Shown in pieces: positions 9,627 to 30,200 of a stretch of 30,200 bases of DNA (position 1 is the first letter of the stretch; every line of letters starts with the position of its first letter). This DNA is from a virus. A model generated the notes under the pieces. It had not been told where the DNA came from. It was given only the letters and a program-made list of their open reading frames with translations, and did not search any database. The DNA is taken from the UHGV virus genome UHGV-0253090. One strand, written 5' to 3'. The position numbers and the translations under genes are program-made.

Positions 9627-9631
9627 GATGT

Positions 9632-12611: not shown

Positions 12612-13466
12612 ATGGCAAAAAAAGTCTCAAAATTCTTTCGTATCGGCGTTGAGGGTGACACCTGTGACGGGCGTGTCATCAGTGCGCAGGATATTCAGGA
12701 AATGGCGGAAACCTTTGACCCGCGAGTCTATGGTTGCCGCATTAACCTGGAACATCTGCGCGGCATCCTGCCTGACGGTATTTTTAAGCGTTATGGCGAT
12801 GTGGCCGAACTGAAGGCCGAAAAGATTGACGATGATTCGGCGCTGAAAGGCAAATGGGCGCTGTTTGCGAAAATCACCCCGACCGATGACCTTATCGCGA
12901 TGAACAAGGCCGCGCAGAAGGTCTATACCTCAATGGAAATTCAGCCGAACTTTGCCAATACCGGCAAATGTTATCTGGTGGGTCTGGCCGTCACCGATGA
13001 CCCGGCAAGCCTCGGCACGGAATACCTGGAATTCTGCCGCACGGCAAAACACAACCCCCTGAACCGCTTCAAATTAAGCCCTGAAAACCTGATTTCAGTG
13101 GCAACGCCCGTTGAGCTGGAATTTGAAGACCTGCCTGAAACCGTGTTCACCGCTCTGACCGAAAAGGTGAAATCCATTTTTGGCCGCAAACAGGCCAGCG
13201 ATGACGCCCGTCTGAATGACGTGCATGAAGCGGTGACCGCTGTCGCTGAACATGTGCAGGAAAAACTGAGCGCCACTGAGCAGCGCCTCGCTGAGATGGA
13301 AACTGCCTTTTCCGCTCTTAAGCAGGAGGTGACTGACAGGGCGGATGAAACCAGTCAGGCATTCAGCCGCCTGAAAAACAGTCTCGACAACACCGAAAGT
13401 CTGACCCAGCAGCGCCGCAGCAAGGCCACCGGCGGTGGCGGTGACGCCCTGATGACGAACTGCTGA
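12612..13466 (+). CDS. O: Capsid scaffolding protein (P2 gpO-like)
   Basis: 284 aa from MAKKVSKFFRIGVEGDT (P2 gpO is 284 aa). AGGA SD. The ORF track start at 12546 is an upstream alternative. Confidence 0.9.
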   Translation: MAKKVSKFFRIGVEGDTCDGRVISAQDIQEMAETFDPRVYGCRINLEHLRGILPDGIFKRYGDVAELKAEKIDDDSALKGKWALFAKITPTDDLIAMNKAAQKVYTSMEIQPNFANTGKCYLVGLAVTDDPASLGTEYLEFCRTAKHNPLNRFKLSPENLISVATPVELEFEDLPETVFTALTEKVKSIFGRKQASDDARLNDVHEAVTAVAEHVQEKLSATEQRLAEMETAFSALKQEVTDRADETSQAFSRLKNSLDNTESLTQQRRSKATGGGGDALMTNC

Positions 13467-13524
13467 CCGGCGTCAGCCAGTCCGGGAAAACCTTCACGAT
13501 TAACCCTTAATTTCAGGAAAAACT

Positions 13525-14598: not shown

Positions 14599-14601
14599 CC
14601 G

Positions 14602-15345
14602 ATGACGAGTCCCGCACAGCGCCACATGATGCGGGTCTCGGCAGCGATGACCGCGCAGCGGGAAGCCGCCCCGCTGCGACATGCAACTGTCTATGAGCAG
14701 ATGCTGGTCAAGCTGGCCGCAGACCAGCGCACACTGAAAGCGATTTATTCAAAAGAGCTGAAGGCCGCGAAAAAACGCGAACTGCTGCCGTTCTGGTTGC
14801 CGTGGGTGAACGGCGTGCTGGAGCAGGGCAAAGGTGCACAGGATGACATTCTGATGACGGTCATGCTGTGGCGTCTGGATACCGGCGATATTGCCGGTGC
14901 GCTGGAGATTGCCCGTTATGCCCTGAAGTACGGTCTGACCATGCCGGGTAAACACCGCCGCACCCCGCCGTACATGTTCACCGAGGAGGTGGCGCTCGCG
15001 GCCATGCGTGCTCACGCTGCCGGTGAGTCTGTGGATACCCGCCTGCTGACGGAGACCCTTGAACTGACCGCCACGGCTGACATGCCTGATGAAGTGCGCG
15101 CAAAGCTGCACAAAATCACCGGTCTGTTTCTGCGTGACGGTGGTGATGCCGCCGGTGCGCTGGCTCACCTGCAACGTGCGACACAGCTCGACTGTCAGGC
15201 AGGCGTCAAAAAAGAGATTGAACGACTGGAGCGGGAGCTGAAACCGAAGCCGGAGCCGCAGCCCAAAGCGGCCACCCGTACCCCGCGTAAGACCCGGAGC
15301 GTGACACCGGCAAAACGTGGACGCCCGAAAAAGAAAGCCAGTTAA
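14602..15345 (+). CDS. M: Terminase small / endonuclease subunit (P2 gpM-like)
   Basis: 247 aa, same length as P2 gpM. Basic C-terminal tail. Confidence 0.88.
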   Translation: MTSPAQRHMMRVSAAMTAQREAAPLRHATVYEQMLVKLAADQRTLKAIYSKELKAAKKRELLPFWLPWVNGVLEQGKGAQDDILMTVMLWRLDTGDIAGALEIARYALKYGLTMPGKHRRTPPYMFTEEVALAAMRAHAAGESVDTRLLTETLELTATADMPDEVRAKLHKITGLFLRDGGDAAGALAHLQRATQLDCQAGVKKEIERLERELKPKPEPQPKAATRTPRKTRSVTPAKRGRPKKKAS

Positions 15346-15444
15346 CAACCGAATGCGCCCCGCGCCAGGGCGGCACGCCGGTCAGTGAGGGTGAATCACC
15401 TGACGCTGTACCGGCGTCCACCGCCCGACTTTTCAGAGGTAGTC

Positions 15445-15954
15445 ATGATGACGCTGATTATTCCGCGAAAGGAGGCTCCCGTGTCCGGTGAGGGTACGGT
15501 GGTCATCCCGCAACCGGCAGGCGACGAGCCGGTGATTAAAAACACGTTCTTTTTTCCCGATATCGACCCGAAGCGCGTCCGGGAACGTATGCGCCTTGAG
15601 CAGACCGTCGCCCCCGCCCGTCTGCGTGAGGCCATCAAGTCAGGCATGGCGGAGACGAATGCGGAGCTGTACGAGTACCGCGAACAGAAAATTGCCGCCG
15701 GTTTTACGCGTCTGGCGGACGTTCCGGCGGACGACATCGACGGTGAAAGCATCAAAGTTTTTTACTACGAGCGCGCCGTGTGTGCGATGGCGACCGCGTC
15801 GCTTTATGAGCGTTATCGCGGCGTGGATGCCAGTGCGAAAGGCGACAAGAAGGCTGACAGCATTGACAGCACCATTGATGAACTGTGGCGGGATATGCGC
15901 TGGGCGGTGGCGCGTATCCAGGACAAGCCGCGCTGCATCGTGAGTCAAATCTGA
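15445..15954 (+). CDS. L: Head completion / stabilization protein (P2 gpL-like)
   Basis: About 169 aa from MMTLIIPRKEAPVSGEG, with GAGG SD. The ORF track start at 15385 is an upstream extension. Confidence 0.85.
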   Translation: MMTLIIPRKEAPVSGEGTVVIPQPAGDEPVIKNTFFFPDIDPKRVRERMRLEQTVAPARLREAIKSGMAETNAELYEYREQKIAAGFTRLADVPADDIDGESIKVFYYERAVCAMATASLYERYRGVDASAKGDKKADSIDSTIDELWRDMRWAVARIQDKPRCIVSQI

Positions 15955-16157
15955 TGAAGACCTTTGCGCTACAGGGCGACACGCTCGACGCCATTTGTGT
16001 CCGGTATTACGGGCGCACTGAGGGCGTGGTCGAGGCCGTGCTCGCCGCAAATCCGGGACTGGCTGAACTGGGCGCGGTGCTGCCGCACGGCACCGCCGTC
16101 GAACTGCCCGACGTTCAGACCGCGCCCGTGGCTGAAACTGTCAATCTGTGGGAGTAA
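15954..16157 (+). CDS. X: Tail protein X (P2 gpX-like)
   Basis: 67 aa from MKTFALQGDTLDAICVRYYG. ATGA overlap with L. Confidence 0.8.
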   Translation: MKTFALQGDTLDAICVRYYGRTEGVVEAVLAANPGLAELGAVLPHGTAVELPDVQTAPVAETVNLWE

Positions 16158-16160
16158 CGC

Positions 16161-16442
16161 ATGACAGCAGAAGAAAAAAGCGTCCTGTCGCTTTTCATGA
16201 TTGGGGTGCTGATTGTTGTCGGCAAGGTGCTTGCCGGTGGTGAACCCATCACCCCGCGTCTGTTTATCGGGCGCATGTTGCTCGGTGGTTTTGTCTCGAT
16301 GGTTGCCGGTGTTGTTCTGGTGCAGTTTCCTGACCTGTCACTGCCTGCGGTGTGCGGCATCGGCTCCATGCTGGGTATCGCCGGTTATCAGGTGATTGAG
16401 ATTGCCATTCAGCGCCGCTTTAAGGGCAGGGGGAAACCGTAA
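16161..16442 (+). CDS. Y: Holin (P2 gpY-like)
   Basis: 93 aa with hydrophobic transmembrane segments (VLSLFMIGVLIVVGKVLAGG...; FVSMVAGVVLVQFP). First gene of the lysis cassette. Confidence 0.85.
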   Translation: MTAEEKSVLSLFMIGVLIVVGKVLAGGEPITPRLFIGRMLLGGFVSMVAGVVLVQFPDLSLPAVCGIGSMLGIAGYQVIEIAIQRRFKGRGKP

Positions 16443-16939
16443 TGCCGGTAATCAACACGCATCAGAATATCGCTGCCTTTCTCGACATGCTGGCCGTGTC
16501 CGAAGGGACGGCGAATCATCCGCTGACGAAAAACCGGGGCTATGACGTGATAGTCACCGGACTGGACGGGAAGCCGGAAATCTTCACCGACTACAGTGAC
16601 CACCCGTTCGCACATGGCCGACCGGCGAAGGTGTTTAACCGTCGCGGTGAAAAATCCACGGCCTCCGGTCGCTATCAGCAGCTTTACCTGTTCTGGCCGC
16701 ATTACCGCAAACAGCTTGCCCTGCCGGATTTCAGTCCGTTGTCACAGGACAGACTCGCCATTCAGTTGATCCGCGAACGCGGTGCGCTGGATGACATCCG
16801 GGCGGGGCGCATTGAGCGCGCCATTTCACGCTGTCGCAATATCTGGGCGTCCCTGCCGGGTGCCGGTTACGGTCAGCGTGAGCATTCACTGGAAAAACTG
16901 GTCACCGTCTGGCGTACCGCCGGCGGCGTACCGGCTTAA
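16442..16939 (+). CDS. K: Endolysin (P2 gpK-like lysozyme)
   Basis: 165 aa, same length as P2 gpK. Overlaps the holin stop. Confidence 0.88.
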   Translation: MPVINTHQNIAAFLDMLAVSEGTANHPLTKNRGYDVIVTGLDGKPEIFTDYSDHPFAHGRPAKVFNRRGEKSTASGRYQQLYLFWPHYRKQLALPDFSPLSQDRLAIQLIRERGALDDIRAGRIERAISRCRNIWASLPGAGYGQREHSLEKLVTVWRTAGGVPA

Positions 16940-16953
16940 ACGGAGTAAACACC

Positions 16954-17379
16954 ATGAAGAAATTATCCCTTTCACTGACGCTGAACGTGTCGCTGGCGCT
17001 GATGCTGGCACTGTCCCTGATTTACCCGCAGAGCGTGGCCGTTAATTTTGTCGCCGCCTGGGCGATTCTGGCGACGGTTATCTGTGTGGTTGCCGGTGGT
17101 GTCGGCGTGTATGCCACGGAGTATGTACTGGAACGCTACGGGCGGGAGCTGCCGCCGGAATCGCTGGCCGTGAAGATTGTCACGTCGCTGTTTTTGCAGC
17201 CGGTGCCGTGGCGCAGACGGGCGGCGGCTCTGGTAGTGATGGTGGCGACGTTTATCTCGCTGGTCGCTGCCGGGTGGATTTTTACTGCGCTGATTTATCT
17301 CGTGGCGTCGCTGTTTTTCCGGCTGATACGCACGGCCTGCCGTCAGCGTCTTGAGGGGCGGGAACTATGTCAAAGCTGA
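16954..17379 (+). CDS. lysA: Lysis timing protein LysA (membrane protein)
   Basis: 141 aa, several hydrophobic helices. Same size and position as P2 LysA. Confidence 0.8.
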   Translation: MKKLSLSLTLNVSLALMLALSLIYPQSVAVNFVAAWAILATVICVVAGGVGVYATEYVLERYGRELPPESLAVKIVTSLFLQPVPWRRRAAALVVMVATFISLVAAGWIFTALIYLVASLFFRLIRTACRQRLEGRELCQS

Positions 17380-17792
17380 TGATTGCACTGGTCGTGTTGT
17401 TATCGCTGGCGGTGGCGGGGCTGTTTCTGGCGAAGCATGAAAACGCCAGCCTGCGCGCCTCACTGGACAGGGCGAACAACGTCGCCAGTGAACAGCAGGC
17501 GACTATCTCCATGCTGAAAAATCAGCTTCATGTTGCCCTCTCAAGGGCAGACAAAAACGAGCTGGCGCAGGTGGCACTGCGTCAGGAACTGGAGAACGCC
17601 GCGAAGCGTGAAGCACAGCGCGAGAAAACCATCACGAGGTTACTCAATGAAAACGAAGATTTTCGCCGCTGGTATGGTGCTGACCTGCCTGATGCTGTGC
17701 GCCGGTTGCACCAGCGCCCCGCATGCACCGACGCCAGTGATTGTCGCCAACGCCTGCCCGAAAGTGAGCCTTTGCCCGATGCCGGGCAGTGA
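17367..17792 (+). CDS. lysB: LysB, Rz-like inner-membrane spanin
   Basis: 141 aa with an N-terminal transmembrane segment (LMIALVVLLSLAVAGLFLA) followed by a coiled-coil-like region. Same size as P2 LysB. Confidence 0.8.
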   Translation: MSKLMIALVVLLSLAVAGLFLAKHENASLRASLDRANNVASEQQATISMLKNQLHVALSRADKNELAQVALRQELENAAKREAQREKTITRLLNENEDFRRWYGADLPDAVRRLHQRPACTDASDCRQRLPESEPLPDAGQ

Positions 17793-17937
17793 TCCGCAGA
17801 CGAACGGCGATTTAAGTGCCGATATCCGGCAGCTTGAGAACGCGCTGGCACGCTGTGCCAGCCAGGTAAAAATGATTAAACACTGTCAGGACGAAAACGA
17901 TGCTCAAACCCGACAGCCTGCGCAGGGCGCTGACTGA
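17647..17937 (+). CDS. lysC: LysC, Rz1-like outer-membrane lipoprotein spanin, embedded out of frame in lysB
   Basis: 96 aa from MKTKIFAAGMVLTCLMLCAGC, with a lipobox (LCAGC). Located in the +1 frame inside and beyond lysB. Confidence 0.75.
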   Translation: MKTKIFAAGMVLTCLMLCAGCTSAPHAPTPVIVANACPKVSLCPMPGSDPQTNGDLSADIRQLENALARCASQVKMIKHCQDENDAQTRQPAQGAD

Positions 17938-18367
17938 TGCCGTCACGGTGCTGAAAACCAGTCCAGAGATGCTTCGGATATTCGTGGATAACGGGAGTAT
18001 TGCCTCCACGCTGGCGACGTCGCTGTCGTTCGAAAAGCGTTACACGCTCAATGTGATTGTGACCGACTTTACCGGTGATTTTGACCTGCTCATCGTGCCG
18101 GTGCTGGCGTGGCTGCGGGAAAATCAGCCCGACATCATGACCACCGACGAAGGCCAGAAAAAGGGCTTCACGTTTTATGCAGACATCAACAATGACAGCA
18201 GCTTTGATATCAGCATCAGTCTGATGCTGACCGAGCGCACGCTGGTCAGCGAGGTTGATGGTGCGCTGCATGTGAAGAATATCCCGGAACCCCCGCCGCC
18301 GGAGCCGGTCACCCGCCCGGTGGAGCTTTATATCAATGGCGAACTGGTGAGCAAGTGGGATGAATGA
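17900..18367 (+). CDS. R: Tail completion protein R
   Basis: 155 aa, MLKPDSLRRALTDAVTVLK..., same length as P2 gpR. Confidence 0.88.
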   Translation: MLKPDSLRRALTDAVTVLKTSPEMLRIFVDNGSIASTLATSLSFEKRYTLNVIVTDFTGDFDLLIVPVLAWLRENQPDIMTTDEGQKKGFTFYADINNDSSFDISISLMLTERTLVSEVDGALHVKNIPEPPPPEPVTRPVELYINGELVSKWDE

Positions 18368-18812
18368 GTTTAAGCGTTTTGAAGACCGGCTGACCGGACT
18401 GATTGAATCGCTGTCACCGTCAGGGCGTCGGCGACTGAGTGCCGAACTGGCGAAACGTCTGCGTCAGAGTCAGCAGCGTCGGGTGATGGCACAGAAAGCC
18501 CCGGACGGCACACCCTACGCGCCACGTCAGCAGCAGAGCGCCAGAAAAAAGACCGGTCGCGTTAAGCGAAAAATGTTTGCGAAACTTATCACCAGTCGTT
18601 TTTTGCATATCCGCGCCAGCCCTGAACAGGCATCAATGGAGTTTTACGGCGGAAAGTCACCGAAAATCGCCAGTGTGCATCAGTTTGGTCTGTCGGAAGA
18701 AAACCGGAAGGACGGTAAGAAAATTGATTATCCGGCGCGTCCTCTGCTCGGCTTTACCGGTGAGGATGTGCAGATGATTGAAGAGATTATCCTGGCTCAC
18801 CTCGACCGTTAG
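18360..18812 (+). CDS. S: Tail completion protein S
   Basis: 150 aa, same length as P2 gpS. Overlaps the R stop. Confidence 0.88.
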   Translation: MNEFKRFEDRLTGLIESLSPSGRRRLSAELAKRLRQSQQRRVMAQKAPDGTPYAPRQQQSARKKTGRVKRKMFAKLITSRFLHIRASPEQASMEFYGGKSPKIASVHQFGLSEENRKDGKKIDYPARPLLGFTGEDVQMIEEIILAHLDR

Positions 18813-18844
18813 TTGTGCCATTCCCGACACCTCATCGTCACATT

Positions 18845-18866
18845 GCCGCCGGTATGACCCGGCGGC
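18845..18866 (+). other. Perfect 8-bp stem-loop between S and the V-like ORF
   Basis: GCCGCCGG (18845-18852), loop TATGAC, CCGGCGGC (18859-18866). Lies 13 nt upstream of ATG 18879. No clear U-tract. Confidence 0.4.
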
Positions 18867-18878
18867 ATCCTTCCCGTT

Positions 18879-19919
18879 ATGAACACTCTCGCAAATATTC
18901 AGGAACTCGCGCGCGCACTGCGCAACATGATCCGCACCGGCATTATCGTCGAAACCGACCTTAACGCCGGTCGCTGCCGTGTGCAGACCGGCGGCATGTG
19001 CACCGACTGGCTTCAGTGGCTGACCCATCGCGCCGGACGTTCGCGCACATGGTGGGCACCTTCCGTGGGGGAACAGGTGCTGATTCTGGCCGTGGGCGGT
19101 GAACTCGACACGGCGTTCGTTCTGCCGGGGATTTATTCCGGCGATACCCTGACGCTGGAATCCGAGCCTCTCGTCAAACTGCTGGAGGAAAATGCTTATC
19201 GTGAGCTTATCTGGCGTCAGCGTGTGAATGAGGCTGCACGGGCGGTGATGCTGGCCTGTGCCGCCGGTAATGACCTTGATGTGATTGGTGCCAATTACAA
19301 CACCACGCGCCTGACTATCACCCCGGCAGATGATTCGACCATCCCGCCGACACCGGCAGTGATGGAGTCTGACACCGATTATCGTCTGCGTATTCAGCAG
19401 GCGTTTGAAGGTTTAAGCGTCGCCGGGTCGGTGGGTGCCTATCAGTATCATGGCCGCAGTGCCGACGGGCGTGTCGCGGATATTTCTGTCACCAGTCCGT
19501 CTCCGGCCTGCGTCACTATCTCTGTGCTGTCACGTGAAAATAACGGTGTCGCATCCGAAGACCTGCTGGCCGTGGTGCGTAACGCCCTGAATGGCGAGGA
19601 CGTCAGGCCGGTGGCCGACCGCGTGACCGTGCAGTCTGCCGCCATCGTTGAATACCAGATAAACGCCACGCTTTACCTTTACCCTGGTCCCGAAAGCGAA
19701 CCCATCCGCGCTGCCGCCGTGAAAAAACTGGAAGCGTATATCACGGCACAGCACCGGCTGGGGCGCGATATCCGTCTGTCTGCCATTTATGCCGCTTTGC
19801 ATGTGGAAGGTGTGCAGCGTGTCGAACTGGCTGCACCGCTGGCTGACATCGTGCTCAACAGTACGCAGGCGTCTTTCTGTACCGAATACAGCGTCGTGAC
19901 CGGAGGCTCGGATGAGTGA
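18879..19919 (+). CDS. Baseplate ORF that appears to be an in-frame fusion of the gpV N-terminus (about 90 aa) to the gpJ C-terminal region; no separate gpW gene
   Basis: 346 aa. The first 90 aa or so (MNTLANIQELARALRNMIRTGIIVETDLNAGRCRV...LPGIYSGD) match my recall of the P2 spike gpV N-terminus. The rest (TLTLESEPLVKLLEENAYRELIWRQRV...) resembles baseplate J. The canonical V(211 aa)-W(115 aa)-J(302 aa) set is absent between S and I. Confidence 0.6.
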   Translation: MNTLANIQELARALRNMIRTGIIVETDLNAGRCRVQTGGMCTDWLQWLTHRAGRSRTWWAPSVGEQVLILAVGGELDTAFVLPGIYSGDTLTLESEPLVKLLEENAYRELIWRQRVNEAARAVMLACAAGNDLDVIGANYNTTRLTITPADDSTIPPTPAVMESDTDYRLRIQQAFEGLSVAGSVGAYQYHGRSADGRVADISVTSPSPACVTISVLSRENNGVASEDLLAVVRNALNGEDVRPVADRVTVQSAAIVEYQINATLYLYPGPESEPIRAAAVKKLEAYITAQHRLGRDIRLSAIYAALHVEGVQRVELAAPLADIVLNSTQASFCTEYSVVTGGSDE

Positions 19920-20523
19920 TTCGCGACTGCTGCCGACCGGCTCATCACTGCTTGAAGTTGCCGCCGCAAAAGCCTGTGCGGAAATTGAAAAAACGCCGGT
20001 CAGTATTCGTGAGCTGTGGAACCCGGACACCTGCCCGGCAAATCTGCTGCCGTGGCTGGCGTGGTCATTTTCGGTTGACCGCTGGGATGATAAATGGCCG
20101 GAAGCGACAAAACGCGCTGTTATCCGCGATGCGTATTTCATTCACTGCCATAAGGGCACTATAGGCGCAATCCGGCGTGTGGTGGAGCCGCTCGGCTATC
20201 TGATTGAGGTGAGGGAGTGGTGGCAGCTCAACGAGGAGCCGGGGACGTTCCGTATCGTTGTTGGCGTGCTTGAGCAGGGTATTACCGAAGAAATGTATCA
20301 GGAGCTGGAGCGCCTAGTTGCTGATGCAAAACCGGCAAGCCGCCATCTGACGGGACTGGCTATCAGTTTAAGTACAACCGGCAACATTTTTGCCGGTGCG
20401 GGATGCTATCACGGTGACGCCCTGACGGTTTATCCCTACACCCCGGAGGCCATTATTGTCGGAGGGGATTATTTCCCGGCCTCGGCCATTCATTTAATTG
20501 ATAACCTGAGAGTAAACGCATGA
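19912..20523 (+). CDS. I: Baseplate protein I (P2 gpI-like)
   Basis: 203 aa. GGAGG SD. ATGA-type overlaps with both flanking genes. Position before the tail fibre. Confidence 0.8.
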
Positions 20524-21704
20524 CAGTGAAATACTACGCCATTCTGACTAATCAGGGCGCAGCACGGCTGGCTAACGCGACGATGCTCGGCAGTAAGCTG
20601 AATCTGACGCAAATGGCCGTTGGTGATGCGAATGGTGTCTTGCCGACACCAGACCCGGCACAGACAAAACTGATTAACCAGAAACGCATCGCGCCGCTGA
20701 ATCTTCTGAGTGTTGACCCGAACAACCAGAGCCAGATTATTGCGGAGCAAATCATCCCTGAGAACGAGGGCGGATTCTGGATCCGTGAGATTGGGCTTTA
20801 TGATGATGAAGGCGTACTCATTGCGGTGGCAAACTGCCCGGAAACGTACAAACCGCAGTTGCAGGAAGGAAGCGGTCGTACCCAGACTATCCGCATGATT
20901 CTGGTTGTCTCGAATACCGAAGCCATCACGCTGAAAATCGACCCGTCGGTGGTACTGGCGACCCGTAAATACGTGGATGATGAAGTCCTGGAATTAAGGC
21001 TGTATGTGGATGACCAGATGAGAAACCACATTGCCGCACAGGATCCTCATACCCAGTATGCGCAGAAACATAATCCGACATTTACCGGAGAACCAAAAGC
21101 GCCGACGCCTGCCGCAGGAAATAACACCACGCGGATTGCGACCACTGCGTTTGTTCAGGCCGCTATTACCGCTCTGATTAACGGTGCGCCAGCCACGCTG
21201 GACACACTGAAAGAAATTGCCGCAGCCATTAACAATGACCCGAAATTCAGTACCACCATTAACAATGCGCTGTCAGGTAAGCAGCCACTGGATGAGACGC
21301 TGACTCATTTGAGTGGAAAGGATGTAGCTGGTCTTCTCGCATACCTTGGTTTGGGAGAAGCGGCAAAACGGAATGTGGGCACAGGAGATAATCAGATACC
21401 GGATATGGGAGCATTCGCTTCTGGTTCGGGATGGTTCAGGCTACCAGGTGGATATATTGTTCAGTTTGGCACTTTTTCAGGAAACACGACCCGCTTTATC
21501 AGTGGACACTTCCCTATACCATTCCCTAATCGGCCGATGGTTTCAGTCAGTGTTATGTCTGATGCCGTTCAGTCAGACCCGTCGAATCCTGCCCCGCAGG
21601 TTTTGTCTGTAAATTTTGAACATATCAGTAATTCAGCGTGGCGTATGGCAACCAGTGATATCTCATATCAATACAGATTCAGTTATATTTCGATAGGACG
21701 GTAG
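20520..21704 (+). CDS. H: Tail fibre protein: constant N-terminal part plus variable C-terminal tip (current orientation of the invertible segment)
   Basis: 394 aa. The N-terminal region resembles Mu S/P1 S-type tail-fibre constant domains. The recombination site at 21334-21359 lies inside the reading frame, at the LGLGE codons. Confidence 0.8.
21334..21359. repeat. 26-bp DNA-invertase crossover site (left, within the tail-fibre gene)
   Basis: TTCTCGCATACCTTGGTTTGGGAGAA, an imperfect palindrome of the hix/gix/cix type. Shares TTGGTTTGGGAGAA with the reverse complement of the site at 23165-23190. Confidence 0.7.
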
Positions 21705-21706
21705 AA

Positions 21707-22147
21707 ATGCAGAAATATATTTTCAGTGCCGATAAAAATGCGTTTTTCCCTGTGGAGCTTAAAATCGCTTATCAGGAATCCGGCGAATGGCCCGGTGATG
21801 GAATCGAAATTGACGACACTGTTGCCGCCGAATTTATGAAGGAAGCACCAGAAGGAAAATACAGAGGCGTCATCGACGGAATGCCTGCATGGATTGATAT
21901 TCCACCGCCAACTCATGAGGAACAAATTGCCGCAGCCGAACTGGAAAAGCAGCAATTGATTAATCAGGTCAACGAATACATAAACAGTAAGCAATGGCCT
22001 GGTAAAGCGGCGATTGGTCGCCTGAAAGGTGAGGAACTGGCGCAATATAATTTGTGGCTGGATTATCTGGACACACTGGAACTGGTCGATACTTCCGGTG
22101 CGCCAGATATTGAATGGCCTACGCCTCCGGCAGTTCAGGCCAGATGA
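21707..22147 (+). CDS. Tail fibre assembly protein (Tfa, G/U-like), active-orientation copy
   Basis: 146 aa. Directly follows the tail-fibre stop. Typical tail-fibre assembly size and position. Confidence 0.75.
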   Translation: MQKYIFSADKNAFFPVELKIAYQESGEWPGDGIEIDDTVAAEFMKEAPEGKYRGVIDGMPAWIDIPPPTHEEQIAAAELEKQQLINQVNEYINSKQWPGKAAIGRLKGEELAQYNLWLDYLDTLELVDTSGAPDIEWPTPPAVQAR

Positions 22148-22712
22148 CATCCGGCGCGGTGCTGGTATCTGTTACCGTCACCGCGTCAATGTAATCCAGC
22201 ACGGCGTTAAGTCGGGTTGTTTCTGCCTGCGTCAGCTTCCGTCCGGCCTGTAATTTCAGTTGAATCAGACTGATGGAAGCCATTGCAGCATCAATCAGCG
22301 ACTGGCGCTGTGCTTCTGCCGCGTCTACTGCGGCACTATGCTGTGCCTCAGTATCTGTCACCCATTTCTCACCATCCCATTTATCGTATGGCGTTAACGG
22401 TGAAAGCGTGACATAACCGTCTTTGATGGCACCGATATAATCCACTGTAACAGCTGCGCCATTTTCGATTGAGTAAACAGTCTCATTGCGGTGGTCTTCT
22501 TCATGGCTCCATCCCTTACCCGTAAATACTGCCACTTTCCCCGGAATGTATTCGCCCGGGTCAATACCAGTAGAACAGGCGGGCATACTTACGCCAGTAT
22601 TAATATATTCATCAGACCAGCCCGTATATTCAGACGTTACTGCATCATAATAAAAACAACGCATATCACCCGGCACTGTAGCCAGCCCATTTTCATCAAA
22701 AACAGGTTTCAT
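22119..22712 (-). CDS. Tail fibre assembly protein (alternative copy, inverse orientation)
   Basis: 197 aa on the minus strand inside the invertible segment. Its 3' end overlaps the plus-strand tfa 3' end by 29 bp. Confidence 0.7.
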   Translation of the reverse strand: MKPVFDENGLATVPGDMRCFYYDAVTSEYTGWSDEYINTGVSMPACSTGIDPGEYIPGKVAVFTGKGWSHEEDHRNETVYSIENGAAVTVDYIGAIKDGYVTLSPLTPYDKWDGEKWVTDTEAQHSAAVDAAEAQRQSLIDAAMASISLIQLKLQAGRKLTQAETTRLNAVLDYIDAVTVTDTSTAPDVIWPELPEA

Positions 22713-23190
22713 TATGCAGCCCTCACAATATAATTAAAGGCGATGTTACGTGGACGGTTTTCATTAGCTGTTGGCACGACACGAGAGGCGTCGAATCCAA
22801 GGTCATCGGTTTTGTCTATAGTAGTTGTGTTATTCGGCATTCTCGCTGATCGTGTTCCTGCATCGTAAAAAGCCCCTCTGATTGCATCAAAAGACATACC
22901 GATCCCGCCATCTGCGAATCCCTCAATATTTCTTATTGCATCCCCCTGTGAAGATAATAATTGTCGCCCGGCATCCACTCCACGTCCGTCATCCCAGCCA
23001 CGAATAAATTCACCGCGTAAATCAGGCAATTTATTTGTCGGATAAACCTTTGCCAGTTCCGGGTATTCTTCAGCAGAAAAAGCCGCACCATTGCATTTTA
23101 GCCAGCCTGTTGGCGGAGTGGCGGAAGGCCACGGGACAGGCACACCAACGGGTAATGCCGAACCTTCTCCCAAACCAACGTTTAAGAAAA
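22712..23190 (-). CDS. Alternative tail-fibre C-terminal tip (promoterless; expressed only after inversion fuses it to the constant H region)
   Basis: Minus-strand ORF reading ...LGLGEGSALPVGVPVPWPSATPPTGWLKCNGAAFS.... The LGLGE codons coincide with the crossover site, which preserves frame with H. The ORF track extends to 23218, but that part is junction sequence. Confidence 0.65.
23165..23190. repeat. 26-bp DNA-invertase crossover site (right)
   Basis: TTCTCCCAAACCAACGTTTAAGAAAA. Its reverse complement TTTTCTTAAACGTTGGTTTGGGAGAA is the inverted partner of the 21334-21359 site. Confidence 0.7.
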
Positions 23191-23245
23191 TGCAGAGATA
23201 GCGGCTAACTGGCATCATCTCCGGTTTTTATTCAGGGGATCCGTC

Positions 23246-23839
23246 ATGCTTATTGGCTATGTCCGCGTATCAACAAATGACCAGAACACGGAATTGCAGC
23301 GTAACGCACTGGAGTGTGCAGGATGTGAGCTGATTTTTGAGGACAAAATCAGCGGCACGAAGTCCGACAGACCGGGGCTGAAAAAACTGCTCAGAACATT
23401 ATCGGAAGGTGACACTCTGGTTGTCTGGAAGCTGGACAGGCTGGGGCGTAGTATGCGGCATCTGGTCATTCTGGTTGAGGAACTGCGCGAACGCGGCGTT
23501 AATTTTCGCAGCCTGACGGATGCTATTGATACCAGCACGCCGATGGGGCGTTTTTTCTTTCATGTGATGGGTGCCCTGGCTGAAATGGAGCGAGAACTCA
23601 TTGTCGAGAGGACACGCGCCGGACTGGAAGCGGCCAGAGCCAAAGGTCGTATTGGTGGCAGACGACCGAAACTCACCGCGAGTGAGTGGGAGCAGGCCGG
23701 GCGTTTGCTGGCTGCAGGGGAGTCACGTCAACGCGTGGCACTGATTTTTGATATTGGTCTGTCCACGCTCTATAAAAAATTTCCCTCATCAGCGACAAAG
23801 AATAAATTGTGTCATCCCTTAGCCAACCGGGACAAATAG
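23246..23839 (+). CDS. Serine DNA invertase (Hin/Gin/Cin/Pin family)
   Basis: 197 aa, MLIGYVRVSTNDQNTELQRNALECAGCELIFEDKISGTKSDRPGL...VVWKLDRLGRSMRHL..., nearly co-linear with e14 Pin / Mu Gin including the catalytic Ser in the VRVST motif. AGGGGA SD. Confidence 0.92.
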   Translation: MLIGYVRVSTNDQNTELQRNALECAGCELIFEDKISGTKSDRPGLKKLLRTLSEGDTLVVWKLDRLGRSMRHLVILVEELRERGVNFRSLTDAIDTSTPMGRFFFHVMGALAEMERELIVERTRAGLEAARAKGRIGGRRPKLTASEWEQAGRLLAAGESRQRVALIFDIGLSTLYKKFPSSATKNKLCHPLANRDK

Positions 23840-23898
23840 CCTGACATCTCCGGCACAACTGAAAATATCACTCACCCATTAACCACGGAGTTAAACGG

Positions 23899-25089
23899 AT
23901 GAGTGACTATCATCACGGCGTGCAGGTGCTGGAGATTAACGACGGCACCCGTGTCATTTCCACCGTATCCACGGCCATTGTCGGCATGGTCTGCACGGCC
24001 AGCGATGCGGATGCGGAAACCTTCCCCCTCAATAAACCGGTGCTGATTACCAATGTGCAGAGCGCAATTGCAAAGGCCGGTAAAAAAGGCACGCTGGCGG
24101 CATCGTTGCAGGCTATCGCCGACCAGTCAAAACCGGTCACCGTTGTTGTGCGCGTGGAGGACGGCACCGGCGACGACGAAGAAACGAAGCTCGCGCAGAC
24201 CGTTTCCAATATCATCGGCACCACTGACGAAAACGGTCAGTACACCGGACTGAAAGCCCTGCTGGCGGCAGAGTCGGTAACCGGTGTTAAACCGCGTATT
24301 CTTGGTGTGCCGGGACTGGATACCAAAGAGGTGGCTGTAGCACTGGCATCAGTCTGTCAGAAGCTGCGCGCTTTCGGGTATATCAGCGCATGGGGCTGTA
24401 AGACCATTTCCGAGGTGAAAGCCTACCGCCAGAATTTCAGCCAGCGTGAGCTGATGGTCATCTGGCCGGATTTCCTCGCATGGGATACGGTCACCAGTAC
24501 CACCGCCACCGCGTATGCCACCGCTCGTGCGCTGGGGCTGCGCGCTAAAATCGACCAGGAGCAGGGCTGGCATAAAACGCTGTCCAACGTCGGGGTGAAC
24601 GGTGTTACCGGCATCAGCGCATCTGTATTCTGGGATTTGCAGGAGTCCGGCACCGATGCTGACCTGCTTAACGAGTCAGGCGTCACTACGCTGATTCGCC
24701 GCGACGGTTTCCGCTTCTGGGGTAACCGTACCTGCTCTGATGACCCACTGTTTCTCTTTGAAAACTACACCCGTACCGCGCAGGTGCTGGCCGACACGAT
24801 GGCTGAGGCGCACATGTGGGCGGTGGACAAGCCCATCACCGCAACGCTGATTCGCGACATCGTTGACGGCATCAATGCCAAATTCCGTGAGCTGAAAACA
24901 AACGGCTATATCGTGGATGGCTCATGCTGGTTCAGCGAAGAATCCAACGATGCGGAAACCCTCAAGGCCGGAAAACTGTATATCGACTACGACTATACAC
25001 CGGTGCCTCCTCTCGAAAACCTGACCCTGCGCCAGCGTATTACCGATAAATACCTGGCGAATCTGGTCACCTCGGTTAACAGCAATTAA
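23899..25089 (+). CDS. FI: Tail sheath protein (P2 gpFI-like)
   Basis: 396 aa, same length as P2 FI. Confidence 0.9.
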   Translation: MSDYHHGVQVLEINDGTRVISTVSTAIVGMVCTASDADAETFPLNKPVLITNVQSAIAKAGKKGTLAASLQAIADQSKPVTVVVRVEDGTGDDEETKLAQTVSNIIGTTDENGQYTGLKALLAAESVTGVKPRILGVPGLDTKEVAVALASVCQKLRAFGYISAWGCKTISEVKAYRQNFSQRELMVIWPDFLAWDTVTSTTATAYATARALGLRAKIDQEQGWHKTLSNVGVNGVTGISASVFWDLQESGTDADLLNESGVTTLIRRDGFRFWGNRTCSDDPLFLFENYTRTAQVLADTMAEAHMWAVDKPITATLIRDIVDGINAKFRELKTNGYIVDGSCWFSEESNDAETLKAGKLYIDYDYTPVPPLENLTLRQRITDKYLANLVTSVNSN

Positions 25090-25101
25090 GGAGCCTGACC
25101 G

Positions 25102-25620
25102 ATGGCAATGCCGCGCAAACTCAAGTTAATGAACGTCTTTCTGAACGGCTACAGCTATCAGGGCGTCGCAAAGTCCGTCACGCTGCCAAAACTGACCCGT
25201 AAGCTCGAAAACTATCGCGGTGCGGGGATGAACGGCAGCGCACCGGTAGACCTCGGCCTTGATGACGATGCGCTGTCAATGGAGTGGTCGCTCGGTGGTT
25301 TCCCGGATTCGGTTATCTGGGAACTTTACGCTGCAACTGGTGTGGATGCCGTGCCGATTCGTTTTGCAGGCTCTTACCAGCGTGACGATACCGGCGAAAC
25401 GGTGGCCGTTGAAGTGGTCATGCGTGGACGTCAGAAAGAAATCGACACCGGCGAGGGTAAACAGGGAGAAGACACCGAGTCGAAAATCTCCGTGGTCTGC
25501 ACCTATTTCCGGCTGACGATGGACGGTAAGGAGCTGGTCGAAATTGACACCATCAACATGATTGAGAAGGTGAACGGCGTCGACCGGCTGGAGCAACACC
25601 GCCGCAATATCGGCCTGTGA
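25102..25620 (+). CDS. FII: Tail tube protein (P2 gpFII-like)
   Basis: 172 aa, same length as P2 FII. AAGGAG SD. Confidence 0.9.
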   Translation: MAMPRKLKLMNVFLNGYSYQGVAKSVTLPKLTRKLENYRGAGMNGSAPVDLGLDDDALSMEWSLGGFPDSVIWELYAATGVDAVPIRFAGSYQRDDTGETVAVEVVMRGRQKEIDTGEGKQGEDTESKISVVCTYFRLTMDGKELVEIDTINMIEKVNGVDRLEQHRRNIGL

Positions 25621-25627
25621 TTTTCAT

Positions 25628-25648
25628 CCGGTCAGCCAGGCTGACCGG
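25628..25648 (+). other. Stem-loop between FII and E (possible attenuator / mRNA processing or stability element)
   Basis: Perfect 8-bp stem CCGGTCAG / CTGACCGG with a 5-nt loop, immediately after the FII stop. No strong U-tract. Confidence 0.4.
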
Positions 25649-25675
25649 TAACCCCGATTCAGAAGTGAGAAAACC

Positions 25676-25951
25676 ATGAACAAAGAAAATGTCATTACCC
25701 TGGACAATCCGGTCAAACGTGGTGAGCAGGTTATCGAACAGGTCACGCTGATGAAACCCAATGCCGGGACGCTGCGCGGTGTCAGTCTGGCTGCGGTCGC
25801 GAACTCCGAAGTCGATGCACTGATTAAGGTGCTGCCGCGCATGACGGCACCGATGCTGACCGAGCAGGAAGTCGCCGCGCTGGAACTGCCTGACCTTGTG
25901 GCTCTGGCCGGTAAGGTGGTCGGTTTTTTGTCGCCGAACTCGGTGCAGTGA
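25676..25951 (+). CDS. E: Tail assembly chaperone E (P2 gpE-like)
   Basis: 91 aa, same length as P2 gpE. Ends just after a T TTT TTG slippery heptamer. Confidence 0.85.
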   Translation: MNKENVITLDNPVKRGEQVIEQVTLMKPNAGTLRGVSLAAVANSEVDALIKVLPRMTAPMLTEQEVAALELPDLVALAGKVVGFLSPNSVQ

Positions 25952-26103
25952 CGTTTCCGAAAAATCTCTCGGTCGATGACCTGATGGCGGATGTGGCTGT
26001 GATATTTCACTGGCCGCCATCAGAACTGTATCCCATGAGCCTGACCGAACTCATCACATGGCGCGAAAAGGCGCTCCGGCGAAGCGGAAACACGAATGAG
26101 TAA
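25676..26103 (+). CDS. E+E' tail assembly chaperone produced by programmed -1 ribosomal frameshift at TTTTTTG (25924-25930)
   Basis: My own translation of the -1 frame from the slippery site gives VAELGAVTFPKNLSVDDLMADVAVIFHWPPSELYPMSLTELITWREKALRRSGNTNE, ending at TAA 26101-26103 just inside the T start. Total length about 142 aa, as for P2 E+E'. Confidence 0.75.
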
Positions 26104-28543
26104 CAATGTAAAATTACAGGTATTGCTCAGGGCTGTTGACCAGGCATCCCGCCCGTTTAAATCCATCCGCACAGCGAGCAAATCGCTGTCGGGGGATATC
26201 CGGGAAACACAAAAATCACTGCGCGAGCTGAACGGTCAGGCATCCCGTATTGAGGGATTTCGCAAGACCAGTGCACAGCTCGCCGTGACTGGTCAGGAAC
26301 TGAAAAAAGCCAGACAGGAAGCCGCAGCTCTGGCTGTCCAGTTTAAAAATACTGAACGACCGACAAATGCACAGGCAAAGGCAATGGAAGCCGCGCGTAA
26401 AAATGCGTCTGAGTTACAGGCGAAATATAACAGCCTGAGATTGTCGGTACAGCGCCAGCGTCAGGAATTGAGTCAGGCGGGTATTAATACCCGTAATCTG
26501 GCGCATGATGAACGAGGGCTGAAAAACCGTATCAGTGAAACCACCACACAGCTTAACCGTCAGCGTGATGCGCTGGCGCGTGTCAGTGCGCAACAGGCAA
26601 AACTTAACGCAGTAAAACAGCGTTATCAGGCCGGAAAGGAGCTGGCCGGAAATATGGCCTCAGTGGGCGCTGCCGGTGTGGGGATTGCGGCGGCGGGAAC
26701 GATGGCCGGTGTTAAGCTGCTGATGCCCGGTTATGAGTTTGCGCAGAAAAACTCAGAATTGCAGGCCGTGCTGGGTGTGGCAAAAGACTCCGCCGAAATG
26801 GCCGCGCTCCGCAAACAGGCGCGTCAGCTTGGCGACAATACCGCCGCCTCGGCAGATGATGCAGCCGGTGCGCAGATTATTATTGCGAAAGCCGGTGGGG
26901 ATGTTGATGCCATTCAGGCGGCAACGCCGGTCACGCTGAATATGGCGCTGGCGAACCGTCGCACGATGGAAGAAAACGCCGCCCTGCTGATGGGGATGAA
27001 ATCCGCCTTTCAGCTTTCAAACGATAAGGTCGCTCATATCGGGGATGTTCTCTCCATGACGATGAACAAAACCGCCGCCGATTTTGACGGTATGAGCGAT
27101 GCGCTGACCTATGCCGCACCTGTGGCAAAAAATGCCGGTGTCAGCATTGAAGAAACCGCCGCAATGGTCGGGGCGCTGCATGATGCAAAAATCACAGGCT
27201 CAATGGCGGGGACGGGAAGCCGTGCCGTGTTAAGCCGCCTGCAGGCACCGACGGGAAAAGCATGGGATGCACTCAAAGAGCTTGGAGTGAAAACCTCAGA
27301 CAGCAAGGGAAACACCCGGCCAATATTTACCATTCTGAAAGAAATGCAGGCCAGTTTTGAGAAAAACCGGCTCGGTACTGCCCAGCAGGCTGAATACATG
27401 AAAACTATTTTCGGGGAGGAGGCCAGCTCAGCCGCCGCCGTGCTGATGACTGCCGCCTCAACCGGAAAGCTGGACAAACTGACCGCTGCGTTTAAAGCCT
27501 CAGACGGGAAGACCGCCGAGCTGGTAAATATCATGCAGGACAACCTGGGCGGTGACTTTAAGGAGTTTCAGTCTGCTTATGAGGCGGTGGGGACTGACCT
27601 GTTTGACCAACAGGAAGGCGCACTGCGTAATCTCACGCAGACGGCCACAAAGTATGTGTTAAAACTCGACGGCTGGATCCAGAAAAACAAATCACTGGCG
27701 TCAACCATCGGCCTTATTGTCGGTGGCGCACTGGCGCTTATTGGCATCATCGGTGCAATTGGTCTTGTAGCCTGGCCGGTTATCACCGGCATTAATGCCA
27801 TCATCGCGGCAGCAGGCGCAATGGGGGCAATCTTCACGACGGTTGGCAGTGCTGTTATGACGGCCATCGGGGCGATTAGCTGGCCGGTTGTGGCCGTGGT
27901 GGCCGCCATTGTCGCCGGGGCGTTGCTTATCCGTAAATACTGGGAGCCTGTCAGCGCATTCTTTGGCGGTGTGGTGGAAGGGCTGAAAGCGGCATTTGCG
28001 CCGGTGGGGGAACTGTTCACGCCACTTAAACCGGTTTTTGACTGGCTGGGTGAAAAGTTACAGGCCGCGTGGCAGTGGTTTAAAAACCTGATTGCCCCGG
28101 TTAAAGCCACACAGGACACCCTGAACCGTTGCCGTGACACGGGGGTCATGTTCGGGCAGGCACTGGCTGACGCGCTGATGCTGCCGCTTAATGCGTTCAA
28201 CAAACTGCGCAGCGGTATTGACTGGGTACTGGAAAAACTCGGTGTTATCAACAAAGAGTCAGACACACTTGACCAGACCGCCGCCAGAACTCATGCCGCC
28301 ACGTATGGCACCGGTGGTTATATTCCGGCGACCAGCTCTTATGCAGGTTATCAGGCTTATCAGCCGGTTACGGCACCGGCTGGCCGCTCTTATGTGGACC
28401 AGAGTAAAAACGAATATCACATCAGCCTGACGGGTGGTACTGCGCCGGGGACACAGCTTGACCGCCAGTTACAGGATGCGCTCGAAAAATACGAGCGGGA
28501 TAAACGTGCGCGCGCCCGTGCCAGCATGATGCATGACGGTTAA
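26096..28543 (+). CDS. T: Tail tape measure protein (P2 gpT-like)
   Basis: 815 aa, same length as P2 gpT. Coiled-coil-rich N-terminus and Ala/Gly-rich hydrophobic segments typical of tape measure proteins. Confidence 0.9.
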   Translation: MSNNVKLQVLLRAVDQASRPFKSIRTASKSLSGDIRETQKSLRELNGQASRIEGFRKTSAQLAVTGQELKKARQEAAALAVQFKNTERPTNAQAKAMEAARKNASELQAKYNSLRLSVQRQRQELSQAGINTRNLAHDERGLKNRISETTTQLNRQRDALARVSAQQAKLNAVKQRYQAGKELAGNMASVGAAGVGIAAAGTMAGVKLLMPGYEFAQKNSELQAVLGVAKDSAEMAALRKQARQLGDNTAASADDAAGAQIIIAKAGGDVDAIQAATPVTLNMALANRRTMEENAALLMGMKSAFQLSNDKVAHIGDVLSMTMNKTAADFDGMSDALTYAAPVAKNAGVSIEETAAMVGALHDAKITGSMAGTGSRAVLSRLQAPTGKAWDALKELGVKTSDSKGNTRPIFTILKEMQASFEKNRLGTAQQAEYMKTIFGEEASSAAAVLMTAASTGKLDKLTAAFKASDGKTAELVNIMQDNLGGDFKEFQSAYEAVGTDLFDQQEGALRNLTQTATKYVLKLDGWIQKNKSLASTIGLIVGGALALIGIIGAIGLVAWPVITGINAIIAAAGAMGAIFTTVGSAVMTAIGAISWPVVAVVAAIVAGALLIRKYWEPVSAFFGGVVEGLKAAFAPVGELFTPLKPVFDWLGEKLQAAWQWFKNLIAPVKATQDTLNRCRDTGVMFGQALADALMLPLNAFNKLRSGIDWVLEKLGVINKESDTLDQTAARTHAATYGTGGYIPATSSYAGYQAYQPVTAPAGRSYVDQSKNEYHISLTGGTAPGTQLDRQLQDALEKYERDKRARARASMMHDG

Positions 28544-28557
28544 GGAGGTGACGAAAA

Positions 28558-29037
28558 ATGATGCTCGCGTTAGGTATGTTTGTTTTTATGCGCCAGACGC
28601 TGCCACACCAGACCATGCAGCGTGAATCAGATTATCGCTGGCCGTCAAATTCCCGTATCGGTAAACGGGATGCCTTTCAGTTTCTCGGTGTTGGCGAGGA
28701 AAACATCACGCTTGCCGGTGTGCTTTATCCCGAACTGACCGGCGGCAAGCTGACGATGACCACGCTCAGACTGATGGCAGAGGAAGGCCGGGCGTGGCCG
28801 TTGCTGGATGGCTCCGGCATGATTTACGGCATGTATGTCATCAGCAGGGTGAGTGAAACAGGGAGTATTTTCTTTGCAGACGGCACACCCCGGAAAATTG
28901 ATTTTACGCTGTCGCTCACCCGCGTTGATGAATCACTGGCCGCGCTTTATGGCGATATCGGTAAACAGGCGGAATCGCTCATCGGTAAGGCTGGCAGTAT
29001 GGCGACTAAATTCACGGGTATGACGGGGGTGGGATAA
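28558..29037 (+). CDS. U: Tail protein U (P2 gpU-like)
   Basis: 159 aa, same length as P2 gpU. AGGAGG SD. Confidence 0.88.
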   Translation: MMLALGMFVFMRQTLPHQTMQRESDYRWPSNSRIGKRDAFQFLGVGEENITLAGVLYPELTGGKLTMTTLRLMAEEGRAWPLLDGSGMIYGMYVISRVSETGSIFFADGTPRKIDFTLSLTRVDESLAALYGDIGKQAESLIGKAGSMATKFTGMTGVG

Positions 29038-30200
29038 TGCCGGATGCGTTGACATTTGATGCAGGCAGTACGCTGACGCCGGATTACATGCTGATGCTCG
29101 ACAGCAGGGATATTACCGGCAATATCAGCGACCGTCTGATGAGCATGACCCTGACGGATAACCGGGGCTTTGAGGCTGACCAGCTTGATATTGAACTGAA
29201 CGATGCCGACGGGCAGGTCGGGCTGCCGGTTCGTGGCGCTGTCCTGACGGTGTATATCGGCTGGAAAGGTTTTGCCCTGGTATGTAAAGGGAAATTCACC
29301 GTTGATGAGGTTGAACACCGGGGCGCACCGGATGTGGTCACCATCCGCGCCCGGAGTGCAGATTTTCGCGGGACGCTCAATTCCCGCCGTGAAGGCTCCT
29401 GGCATGACACCACGCTCGGTGCGATTGTTGAGGCGATTGCCTCCCGTAACAGGCTGGAAGCCAGTGTCGCTCCGTCACTGGCCGGAATTAAAATCCCGCA
29501 CATCGACCAGTCGCAGGAGTCTGATGCTAAATTCCTGACCCGTCTTGCTGAACGCAACGGCGGTGAGGTGTCGGTAAAAATGGGAAAACTGCTGTTTCTC
29601 AAAGCGGGGCAGGGGGTGACGGCCAGCGGTAAAAAAATCCCGCAGATTACCATCACCCGCAGCGACGGCGACCGCCATCATTTTGCGATTGCTGACCGTG
29701 GAGCCTACACCGGTGTAACGGCAAAATGGCTACACACCAAAGACCCGAAGCCTCAAAAGCAGAAGGTAAAACTGAAACGCAAAAAGAAAGAGAAACACCT
29801 GCGCGCACTGGAGCACCCGAAAGCGAAACCGGTCAGGCAGAAGAAAGCGCCTAAAGTACCGGAAGCGCGTGAAGGTGAATACATGGCCGGTGAGGCTGAC
29901 AACGTTTTTGCCCTGACCACGGTATATGCCACGAAAGCGCAGGCCATGCGCGCCGCTCAGGCGAAGTGGGATAAGCTGCAACGGGGCGTTGCGGAGTTCT
30001 CCATCAGTCTGGCTACCGGTCGTGCTGATATTTACACGGAAACACCGGTTAAAGTGTCAGGCTTTAAGCGCGTCATAGACGAGCAGGACTGGACAATCAC
30101 TAAGGTGACACATTTTCTGAATAATAGCGGCTTCACGACGTCCTTGGAGCTTGAGGTCAGGCTTTCTGATGTGGAGTACGAAACAGAAGATGATGAGTGA
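29037..30200 (+). CDS. D: Late gene D product (tail protein, P2 gpD-like)
   Basis: 387 aa, same length as P2 gpD. Stop codon at the window end. Confidence 0.88.
   Translation: MPDALTFDAGSTLTPDYMLMLDSRDITGNISDRLMSMTLTDNRGFEADQLDIELNDADGQVGLPVRGAVLTVYIGWKGFALVCKGKFTVDEVEHRGAPDVVTIRARSADFRGTLNSRREGSWHDTTLGAIVEAIASRNRLEASVAPSLAGIKIPHIDQSQESDAKFLTRLAERNGGEVSVKMGKLLFLKAGQGVTASGKKIPQITITRSDGDRHHFAIADRGAYTGVTAKWLHTKDPKPQKQKVKLKRKKKEKHLRALEHPKAKPVRQKKAPKVPEAREGEYMAGEADNVFALTTVYATKAQAMRAAQAKWDKLQRGVAEFSISLATGRADIYTETPVKVSGFKRVIDEQDWTITKVTHFLNNSGFTTSLELEVRLSDVEYETEDDE

Follow-up and report, generated by a model that had tools for sequence, protein, structure and literature searches.

The window analysed here, the 30,200-nucleotide virus genome sequence UHGV-0253090, very probably encodes an inversion switch of the Din type (Hin/Gin/Cin/Pin) for tail-fibre specificity, located in the late V operon of a P2-like prophage. 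By sequence, the window belongs to the P2-like (Peduovirus) prophages. A blastn comparison gave 96–97% identity to the P2 reference NC_001895 over positions 2304–6324 (P2 cox to A), 9445–18814 (cos to S) and 23819–30200 (pF/FI to D). The best overall matches in the phage collection are Escherichia phage pro483 and the 'P2' prophage of E. coli O157:H43 T22, which cover 90–94% of 12000–30200 at 96–97% identity.

In the proposed mechanism, the constant N-terminal part of the fibre (Sc, residues 1–275, of the P2-H type) would attach the fibre to the baseplate and carry an interchangeable C-terminal tip. In the present orientation the phage would make Sc joined to the gp53-like tip Sv, together with the chaperone Tfa1. 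Recombination at the 2-bp cores of two inverted 26-bp sites would be catalysed by the neighbouring serine invertase and would presumably require host Fis on an enhancer inside the invertase gene. Inversion would place the Collar tip Sv' in frame behind Sc, giving a 430-residue fibre followed by Tfa2, and a lysogenic population would release particles with two receptor specificities. We infer that the invertase is catalytically active, that host range changes and that the switch operates in this prophage; Fis dependence is taken from established knowledge of the Din family. The components of the cassette are listed below (ORF, open reading frame; aa, amino acids).

20520–21704, plus strand: fibre ORF, 394 aa, with Pfam domains Phage_tail_fib and Gp53-like_C
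20520–21345, plus strand: Sc, constant N-terminal fibre part (aa 1–275) of P2-H type, PF12571 over aa 1–150 (E = 9e-63)
21334–21359, plus strand: left crossover site, TTCTCGCATACC-TT-GGTTTGGGAGAA, core TT at 21346–21347, inside the fibre ORF, same as the left sites of pro483 and T22 phage
21346–21704, plus strand: Sv, tip joined to Sc in the present orientation, Gp53-like C-terminal domain (PF21882 over aa 307–394)
21707–22147, plus strand: tfa1, putative assembly chaperone for Sv, 146 aa, Caudo_TAP (E = 8e-34)
22119–22712, minus strand: tfa2, putative chaperone for Sv', 197 aa, Caudo_TAP (E = 1.5e-26)
22712–23178 (ORF to 23218), minus strand: Sv', alternative tip, Collar, PF07484 (E = 4e-15)
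23165–23190, plus strand: right crossover site, TTCTCCCAAACC-AA-CGTTTAAGAAAA, core AA at 23177–23178, one mismatch from the right site of e14
21346–23178: invertible segment, 1833 bp, between the cores of both sites; its in-silico flip is found in nature
23246–23839, plus strand: Din-family serine DNA invertase, 197 aa, Pfam Resolvase (PF00239) and HTH_7 (PF02796)

The fibre gene, the tfa genes, the alternative tip, the invertase and the invertible segment are thus present where a preliminary description of this DNA had placed them, as seen from the ORFs, the Pfam matches and the two crossover sites. PHROGs assignments agree with Pfam for the cassette proteins.

The two crossover sites, each of 26 bp and of the Hin/Gin/Cin/Pin type, were resolved from a 27-nt inverted repeat. 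A scan of the window with the site pattern returned exactly two matches, in inverted orientation and with reverse-complementary 2-bp cores; shuffled sequences give an expectation of 0. Both sites are one or two mismatches from the consensus. The scan was validated by its recovery of the annotated gix and cix boundaries of the Mu G segment and the P1 C segment, and it found two sites each in e14, Fels-2, pro483 and T22 phage. Multi-segment precedents, namely Min of p15B and the three-repeat P2-like locus of enteropathogenic E. coli (EPEC), prompted a search for a third site. Allowing up to 3 mismatches revealed no such site anywhere in the window, and raising the limit to 5 in 20000–24000 revealed none either. 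The system had been called 'shufflon-type' in the preliminary description, a misnomer for what is a two-site serine-invertase switch. A shufflon of the R64 type, with the tyrosine recombinase Rci, multiple sfx repeats and several segments, was rejected: the recombinase is of the serine class, and there are two sites and one segment.

Inside the segment, two fibre tips, each with a chaperone gene, are arranged convergently. When 21346–23178 was flipped in silico, Sc became joined in frame to the minus-strand tip (...LLAYLGLGE|GSALPVGVPVPWPS...). The resulting fibre is 430 aa long and its stop codon overlaps the ATG of tfa2. Two states are therefore predicted for the cassette: Sc and Sv with Tfa1 (the present one, 394 aa) and Sc and Sv' with Tfa2 (430 aa).

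Both orientations occur in nature. The present form is matched over its whole length, in one piece, by five complete E. coli genomes (96.7–97.5% identity). The flipped form is likewise matched end to end in one piece by seven (96.7–98.7%), with breakpoints at the predicted cores. In the T22 P2-like phage the homologous segment also has the opposite orientation. These complete genomes indirectly support, at the population level, the view that the segment inverts. One of the chromosomes, NZ_OY754349.1, has two copies of the block (1771507–1775058 and 4637473–4641024), one per orientation and each 96.7% identical to the window. Published work on EPEC measured inversion directly in P2-like prophages (PMC4272514), and inversion has been inferred for Fels-2 fin (PMC7953296).

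The invertase matches the Gin structures 3UJ3 (E = 1.6e-94) and 4M6F, and it keeps Tyr5, Arg7 and the catalytic Ser9. Its closest relative among those compared is the pro483 invertase (98% identity), followed by PinE (86.7%), Fels-2 Fin (85.8%) and Gin and Cin (about 79%). A candidate recombinational enhancer lies within the gene.

23264–23335, plus strand: putative recombinational (Fis) enhancer, nucleotides 19–90 of the invertase gene, 58 of 72 nt identical to the annotated P1 cin enhancer

The two end blocks of this stretch, at nucleotides 22–36 and 71–85 of the gene, are invariant across six invertase genes. Moreover, its synonymous codons are more conserved than the rest of the invertase gene in 13 of 15 pairs.

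The constant part of the fibre proved to be of P2-H type. The preliminary description had compared the fibre N-terminus to Mu, P1 and e14, and this was not borne out. PF12571, the gpH N-terminal domain, is present in this fibre and in the H proteins of P2 and Fels-2, but lacking in Mu S, P1 S, e14 StfP and SKA5 Stf. BLASTP aligned Sc with the H protein of the T22 P2-like phage at 97.7% identity, with Fels-2 H at 65.6% and with P2 H at 42%; neither Mu S, e14 StfP nor SKA5 Stf was matched by the same program. The fibre matches P2 H only within aa 26–280. Its sole similarity to P1 S is a repeat of 74–81 residues in Sc (aa 184–266), which is also common to P2 H and P1 S. Within the V operon, the coding sequence for the gpH-type domain follows immediately on gene I. 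A search of solved structures with the fibre returned just one match, of 64 aa, to the tail-collar fibre 9D93.

The tips and chaperones show other affinities. Tfa1 is 55% identical to e14 TfaP, 67% to its pro483 counterpart and 96.6% to that of Klebsiella phage Kp4845-2. Tfa2 is 63% identical to e14 TfaE, and Sv' 60% to e14 StfE. The two chaperone genes converge with an overlap of 29 bp, and the identical 29-bp overlap exists in e14 and pro483. Compared with U' of Mu and P1, the best identity of the chaperones is 30–31%, over only 73 aa. Neither tfa1 nor tfa2 has a BLASTP match to P2 G at E < 1e-3, and tfa2 has no match among solved structures. An origin of the tips and chaperones from Mu or P1 was thus rejected (at most 31% over 73 aa to U', and no Mu S match by BLASTP). 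In the preliminary description the chaperones had been likened to Mu, P1 and e14 together; the likeness to e14 stands, that to Mu and P1 does not.

The contrast of Mu/P1 with P2 drawn in that description also has to be turned round. Canonical P2 G (P2 14747–15274) shares 93–94% protein identity with Mu U and P1 U, and the C-terminal half of P2 H is 46–53% identical to the S proteins of Mu and P1. Thus it is the classical P2 that is Mu/P1-like. The likeness of P2 G to Mu/P1 U far exceeds that between the other parts of these genomes and indicates that the classical P2 fibre set was itself imported recently. By homology, the cassette is of the e14 P-segment type in its tips, chaperones, invertase and sites, and its constant fibre part is not e14-like.

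The Sv' ORF runs 14 codons past the right site (23179–23218, minus strand), up to an ATG 27 bp from the invertase start. The same 14-codon extension is found in e14 stfE and in pro483. Conservation of the site and the invertase leader may have produced it as a by-product, or it may permit separate expression of a 168-aa tip protein.

The extent of the exchanged block was determined by blastn against the P2 reference and by junction alignments. The features at its two ends are as follows.

20349–23818: block substituting P2 12630–17571 (3′ end of I, H, G and Z/fun)
19912–20523, plus strand: gene I, baseplate/fibre-attachment protein of 203 aa, Pfam Tail_P2_I (E = 1e-55)
23802–23830, plus strand: counterpart of the P2 pF activator (Ogr) binding site, annotated in P2 at 17555–17583 and mapped via the blastn offset and alignment

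Co-linearity with P2 is lost at window position 20348 (P2 12629, inside gene I) and regained at 23819 (P2 17572, in the pF activator site). The block measures 3470 bp in the window, against 4942 bp removed from P2 (the end of I, H, G and Z/fun). Within it, blastn detected no DNA homology to P2 12630–17571 except a 171-bp repeat. The coordinates first proposed for the block, 20520–23839, were nearly right, the true limits being 20349 and 23818. The conclusion that cassette and invertase replace the C-terminus of P2 H, G and Z/fun holds, with the invertase in the Z/fun cargo slot just upstream of pF/FI.

At the left end, the 3′ third of gene I is non-P2-like from about 20349, and the product is 27 aa longer than P2 I; overall it is 99.5% identical to pro483 I and 82% to P2 I. 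At the right end, the junction falls just inside the counterpart of the Ogr binding site. Homology to e14 pinE stops at 23784 and P2 homology begins at 23819, the last 13 or so invertase codons consisting of junction and pF-promoter DNA. Because the ORF ends inside P2-derived DNA, the invertase has a 13-residue C-terminal extension relative to PinE. Its stop codon lies just downstream of the Ogr-site counterpart. The pF promoter region and FI, which starts at 23899 (plus strand), are kept intact.

The base composition agrees with the earlier statement that 21350–23220 is more AT-rich than the neighbouring tail genes (47.9% GC against 55–58%). The GC content is 50.0% for the whole block, 48.1% for the invertible segment, 52.1% for Sc and 52.7% for the invertase. 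The invertible segment is not the most AT-rich part of the window; 6325–9444 has 32.6% GC.

The block, which took the place of the 3′ end of I, H, G and Z/fun in a P2-like ancestor, reads as a mosaic with three origins. Another Peduoviridae lineage would be the source of Sc and the 3′ end of I. To the e14/Pin type would belong the invertase, both crossover sites and the C-terminal domains of the chaperones. The third origin would be two modules, each a tip plus the N-terminal domain of its chaperone, swapped independently. Comparison with pro483 resolves these parts. Similarity is high up to 21408, across 21882–22400 (the C-terminal halves of both chaperones) and from 22955 on. It is lost over 21409–21881 and 22401–22954, which correspond to each tip with the N-terminal half of its own chaperone. 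Tfa proteins have a variable N-terminal domain that binds the fibre tip and a conserved C-terminal domain. The joint variation of tip and chaperone N-terminal half relative to pro483 fits these domain roles, known from structural work on Mu Tfa.

Exchange of the cassette reaches beyond the P2-like phages. The 1833-bp segment recurs at 99.1% identity in phage SKA5, with unrelated flanks, which upholds the module exchange between unrelated lineages suggested in the preliminary description. The 300 bp on either side of the SKA5 segment are unrelated (50% and 61% in global alignment), and on each side the identity breaks off a few bases from the 2-bp core at most. Gemsvirus 500465-2 has 21343–22753 in common with the window at 96% and, separately, the 3′ end of I and Sc at 90%. 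The Fels-2-like Klebsiella phage Kp4845-2 shares 21343–22400 at 97%. Identity begins at a crossover site in all three phages. Therefore exchange of the cassette between unrelated phage lineages is well supported by these alignments, with the sites marking the joints. As to the route, it is possible, though rather doubtful, that the segment is a portable cassette moving by recombination at the crossover sites, for example by invertase-catalysed exchange between co-resident prophages, and not by ordinary homologous recombination. Short-homology recombination within the 12–13-bp identical inner half-sites fits the same data.

Among P2-like phages this arrangement is a common variant and has been described before. 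With a probe spanning the invertase–FI junction (23640–24060, coverage of at least 80%), it was detected in 581 of 5426 complete E. coli genomes, about one third of the 1673 with any probe match, and in 7 of the 101 matching phage records. A 2024 preprint on phage hotspots reports the Z/fun site of P2-like phages as a frequent location of tail-fibre swaps and of a DNA invertase, accompanied by inversion of the neighbouring genes (bioRxiv 10.1101/2024.10.15.618418).

Two further modules of the prophage depart from P2. Positions 1–2304, with the integrase, repressor and cox region, are only 66–69% identical to P2 and have a GC content of 44.5%; the immunity and integration module is therefore other than that of P2. 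The very AT-rich stretch at 6325–9444 is an insert in the old/tin cargo slot between gene A and cos. Its ORF at 6538–9132 (minus strand) encodes an 864-aa SIR2-domain protein, whose N-terminal 300–380 residues are matched by the PADLOC SIR2/pAgo-associated and PDC-S65 models. This gene is likely, from its domain content, to serve in anti-phage defence.

Several observations weigh against a working switch in this prophage. The strain is represented by a single sequence in one orientation and thus gives no direct sign of inversion. The putative enhancer lies in coding DNA, so that protein constraint confounds its conservation, and Fis binding is inferred from homology. No convincing sigma-70 promoter was found for the invertase: a scan of 20300–24000 gave 7 matches against 5.0 ± 2.1 by chance, and no plus-strand promoter-like match upstream of the invertase. 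Finally, an 848-bp deletion relative to P2 (10578 to 11426), with its junction at 19145–19149, takes out W entirely, together with the 3′ part of V and the 5′ part of J, and leaves the following gene.

18879–19919: V–J fusion ORF, 346 aa, in frame, Phage_base_V and Baseplate_J

The deletion junction is absent, as one piece, from the complete E. coli genomes, and an exact-match scan of 185,579 GTDB representative genomes did not find it. The prophage is probably defective, or else the assembly is in error. If the deletion is real, the baseplate cannot be built, and the switch may flip without effect on particles, as in e14.

We consider it unlikely that the switch is a fossil, a remnant in a decaying prophage that no longer inverts or that inverts, like e14, without consequence for particles. 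The loss of V–W–J, which leaves the fusion ORF, would fit such decay, and so would the cryptic state of e14, which among the classical systems is closest to the cassette. The absence of the junction from the complete E. coli and GTDB representative genomes, which would make the lesion private and recent, points the same way. However, the deletion could also be an assembly artefact. All five cassette ORFs are intact, the sites stay near the consensus, the catalytic residues are present and close relatives occur in both orientations. Moreover, the e14 segment still inverts although e14 is defective (PMC4272514). The same deletion has a part in a second alternative, in which the switch has been domesticated for host defence and inversion makes a chimeric fibre protein by which other phages are kept from adsorbing, to the benefit of the host rather than the prophage. 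Its model is the e14 P segment, which when flipped by PinQ is reported to yield a chimeric StfE2 that blocks T2 adsorption (PMC12529663). Sv' and the invertase resemble their e14 counterparts (60% to StfE and 87% to PinE), the prophage is apparently unable to build a baseplate, and the other hotspot holds the defence-like SIR2-domain gene. Nevertheless, Sc is a full P2-H baseplate-attachment domain within a late operon that is otherwise P2-type and needs Ogr activation, so that no expression is expected in an uninduced lysogen. The same cassette is also found in phage records with complete V–W–J baseplate genes, such as pro483. A role in defence is very improbable.

Plain module replacement without any switching is hardly credible. 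The inverted tip and chaperone would then be leftovers of illegitimate recombination, and the 'invertase' a resolvase or a cargo gene unrelated to the fibre. The Z/fun slot is indeed a known cargo hotspot with many unrelated genes (bioRxiv 10.1101/2024.10.15.618418). However, the 26-bp sites lie exactly at the required reading-frame joint, the flipped form occurs naturally with its breakpoints at those sites, and the scan that located them also hits the gix and cix boundaries as annotated in Mu and P1. In addition, the invertase is close to Gin, Cin and Pin and not to the Tn3 or γδ resolvases. A Din-type inversion switch of fibre specificity is thus the reading we prefer.

For annotation, this means one phase-variable fibre gene with two alternative 3′ ends and their cognate chaperones, and not five separate 'tail proteins'. 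Predictions of host range in this prophage family have to include both orientations. The canonical P2 H/G genes are to be seen as a Mu/P1-like fibre set and the common E. coli variant found here as an e14-like one. The locus is a clean example of receptor-binding modules common across phage families, with breakpoints at recombination sites. Beyond correct annotation the significance is little.

Known systems share the design of the switch to different degrees. The Mu G segment with Gin and the P1 C segment with Cin have the same mechanism and layout (Sc outside, Sv–U and U'–Sv' inside, invertase adjoining) and the same site consensus. Their segments are longer (3.0 and 4.2 kb against 1.8 kb here), Sc and Sv are unlike Mu S, and the chaperones are as distant from U' as stated above. 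The true relatives of the Mu/P1 genes are the H C-terminus and G of P2 itself. Fels-2 and the SopE-phi type of Salmonella phages with Fin are Peduoviridae that also have an invertible H/G region and an invertase between I and FI, and Fels-2 resembles the window in its H N-terminus (66%) and invertase (86%). It belongs to another genus, its cores are TC/GA rather than TT/AA, its tips are longer and unrelated, and its chaperones are 29–30% identical to Tfa1.

The e14 P segment with PinE, in E. coli K-12, has the cassette design and the convergent chaperones described here, at the protein identities given above. Its sites are 1–3 bases apart from those of the window, and the middle of the cassette (21992–22400) is 90.7% identical in DNA. 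However, the N-terminus of StfP is unrelated and without PF12571, the baseplate context is that of the Mu-gp48-like YmfQ, and the tips are diverged alleles. In SKA5 (OR670062), which has a Mu-type baseplate and lambdoid early genes, everything outside the cores of the same-length segment is unrelated: the 215-aa constant part is StfP-like and lacks PF12571, the invertase is 51% identical, and the tail module is another one.

The closest systems are those of pro483 (KR073661; Peduovirus pro483) and the T22 'P2' (KC618326). The preliminary description had expected closest homologues in Mu, P1 and e14 and a break in co-linearity with P2. The block is indeed not co-linear with P2, but the closest homologues of every protein are found in P2-family phages (98% for the pro483 invertase and 99.5% for pro483 I). 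In pro483, V, W and J are intact. In both phages the two tips and the N-terminal halves of the chaperones are other alleles (67% for Tfa1, 64% for Tfa2 and 62% for Sv'). The gene order is the same, I – H(Sc+Sv) – tfa – tfa' – Sv' – invertase – FI; DNA identity outside the cassette is 96–97%, the left site is identical, and the invertase and I agree at 98% and 99%, respectively.

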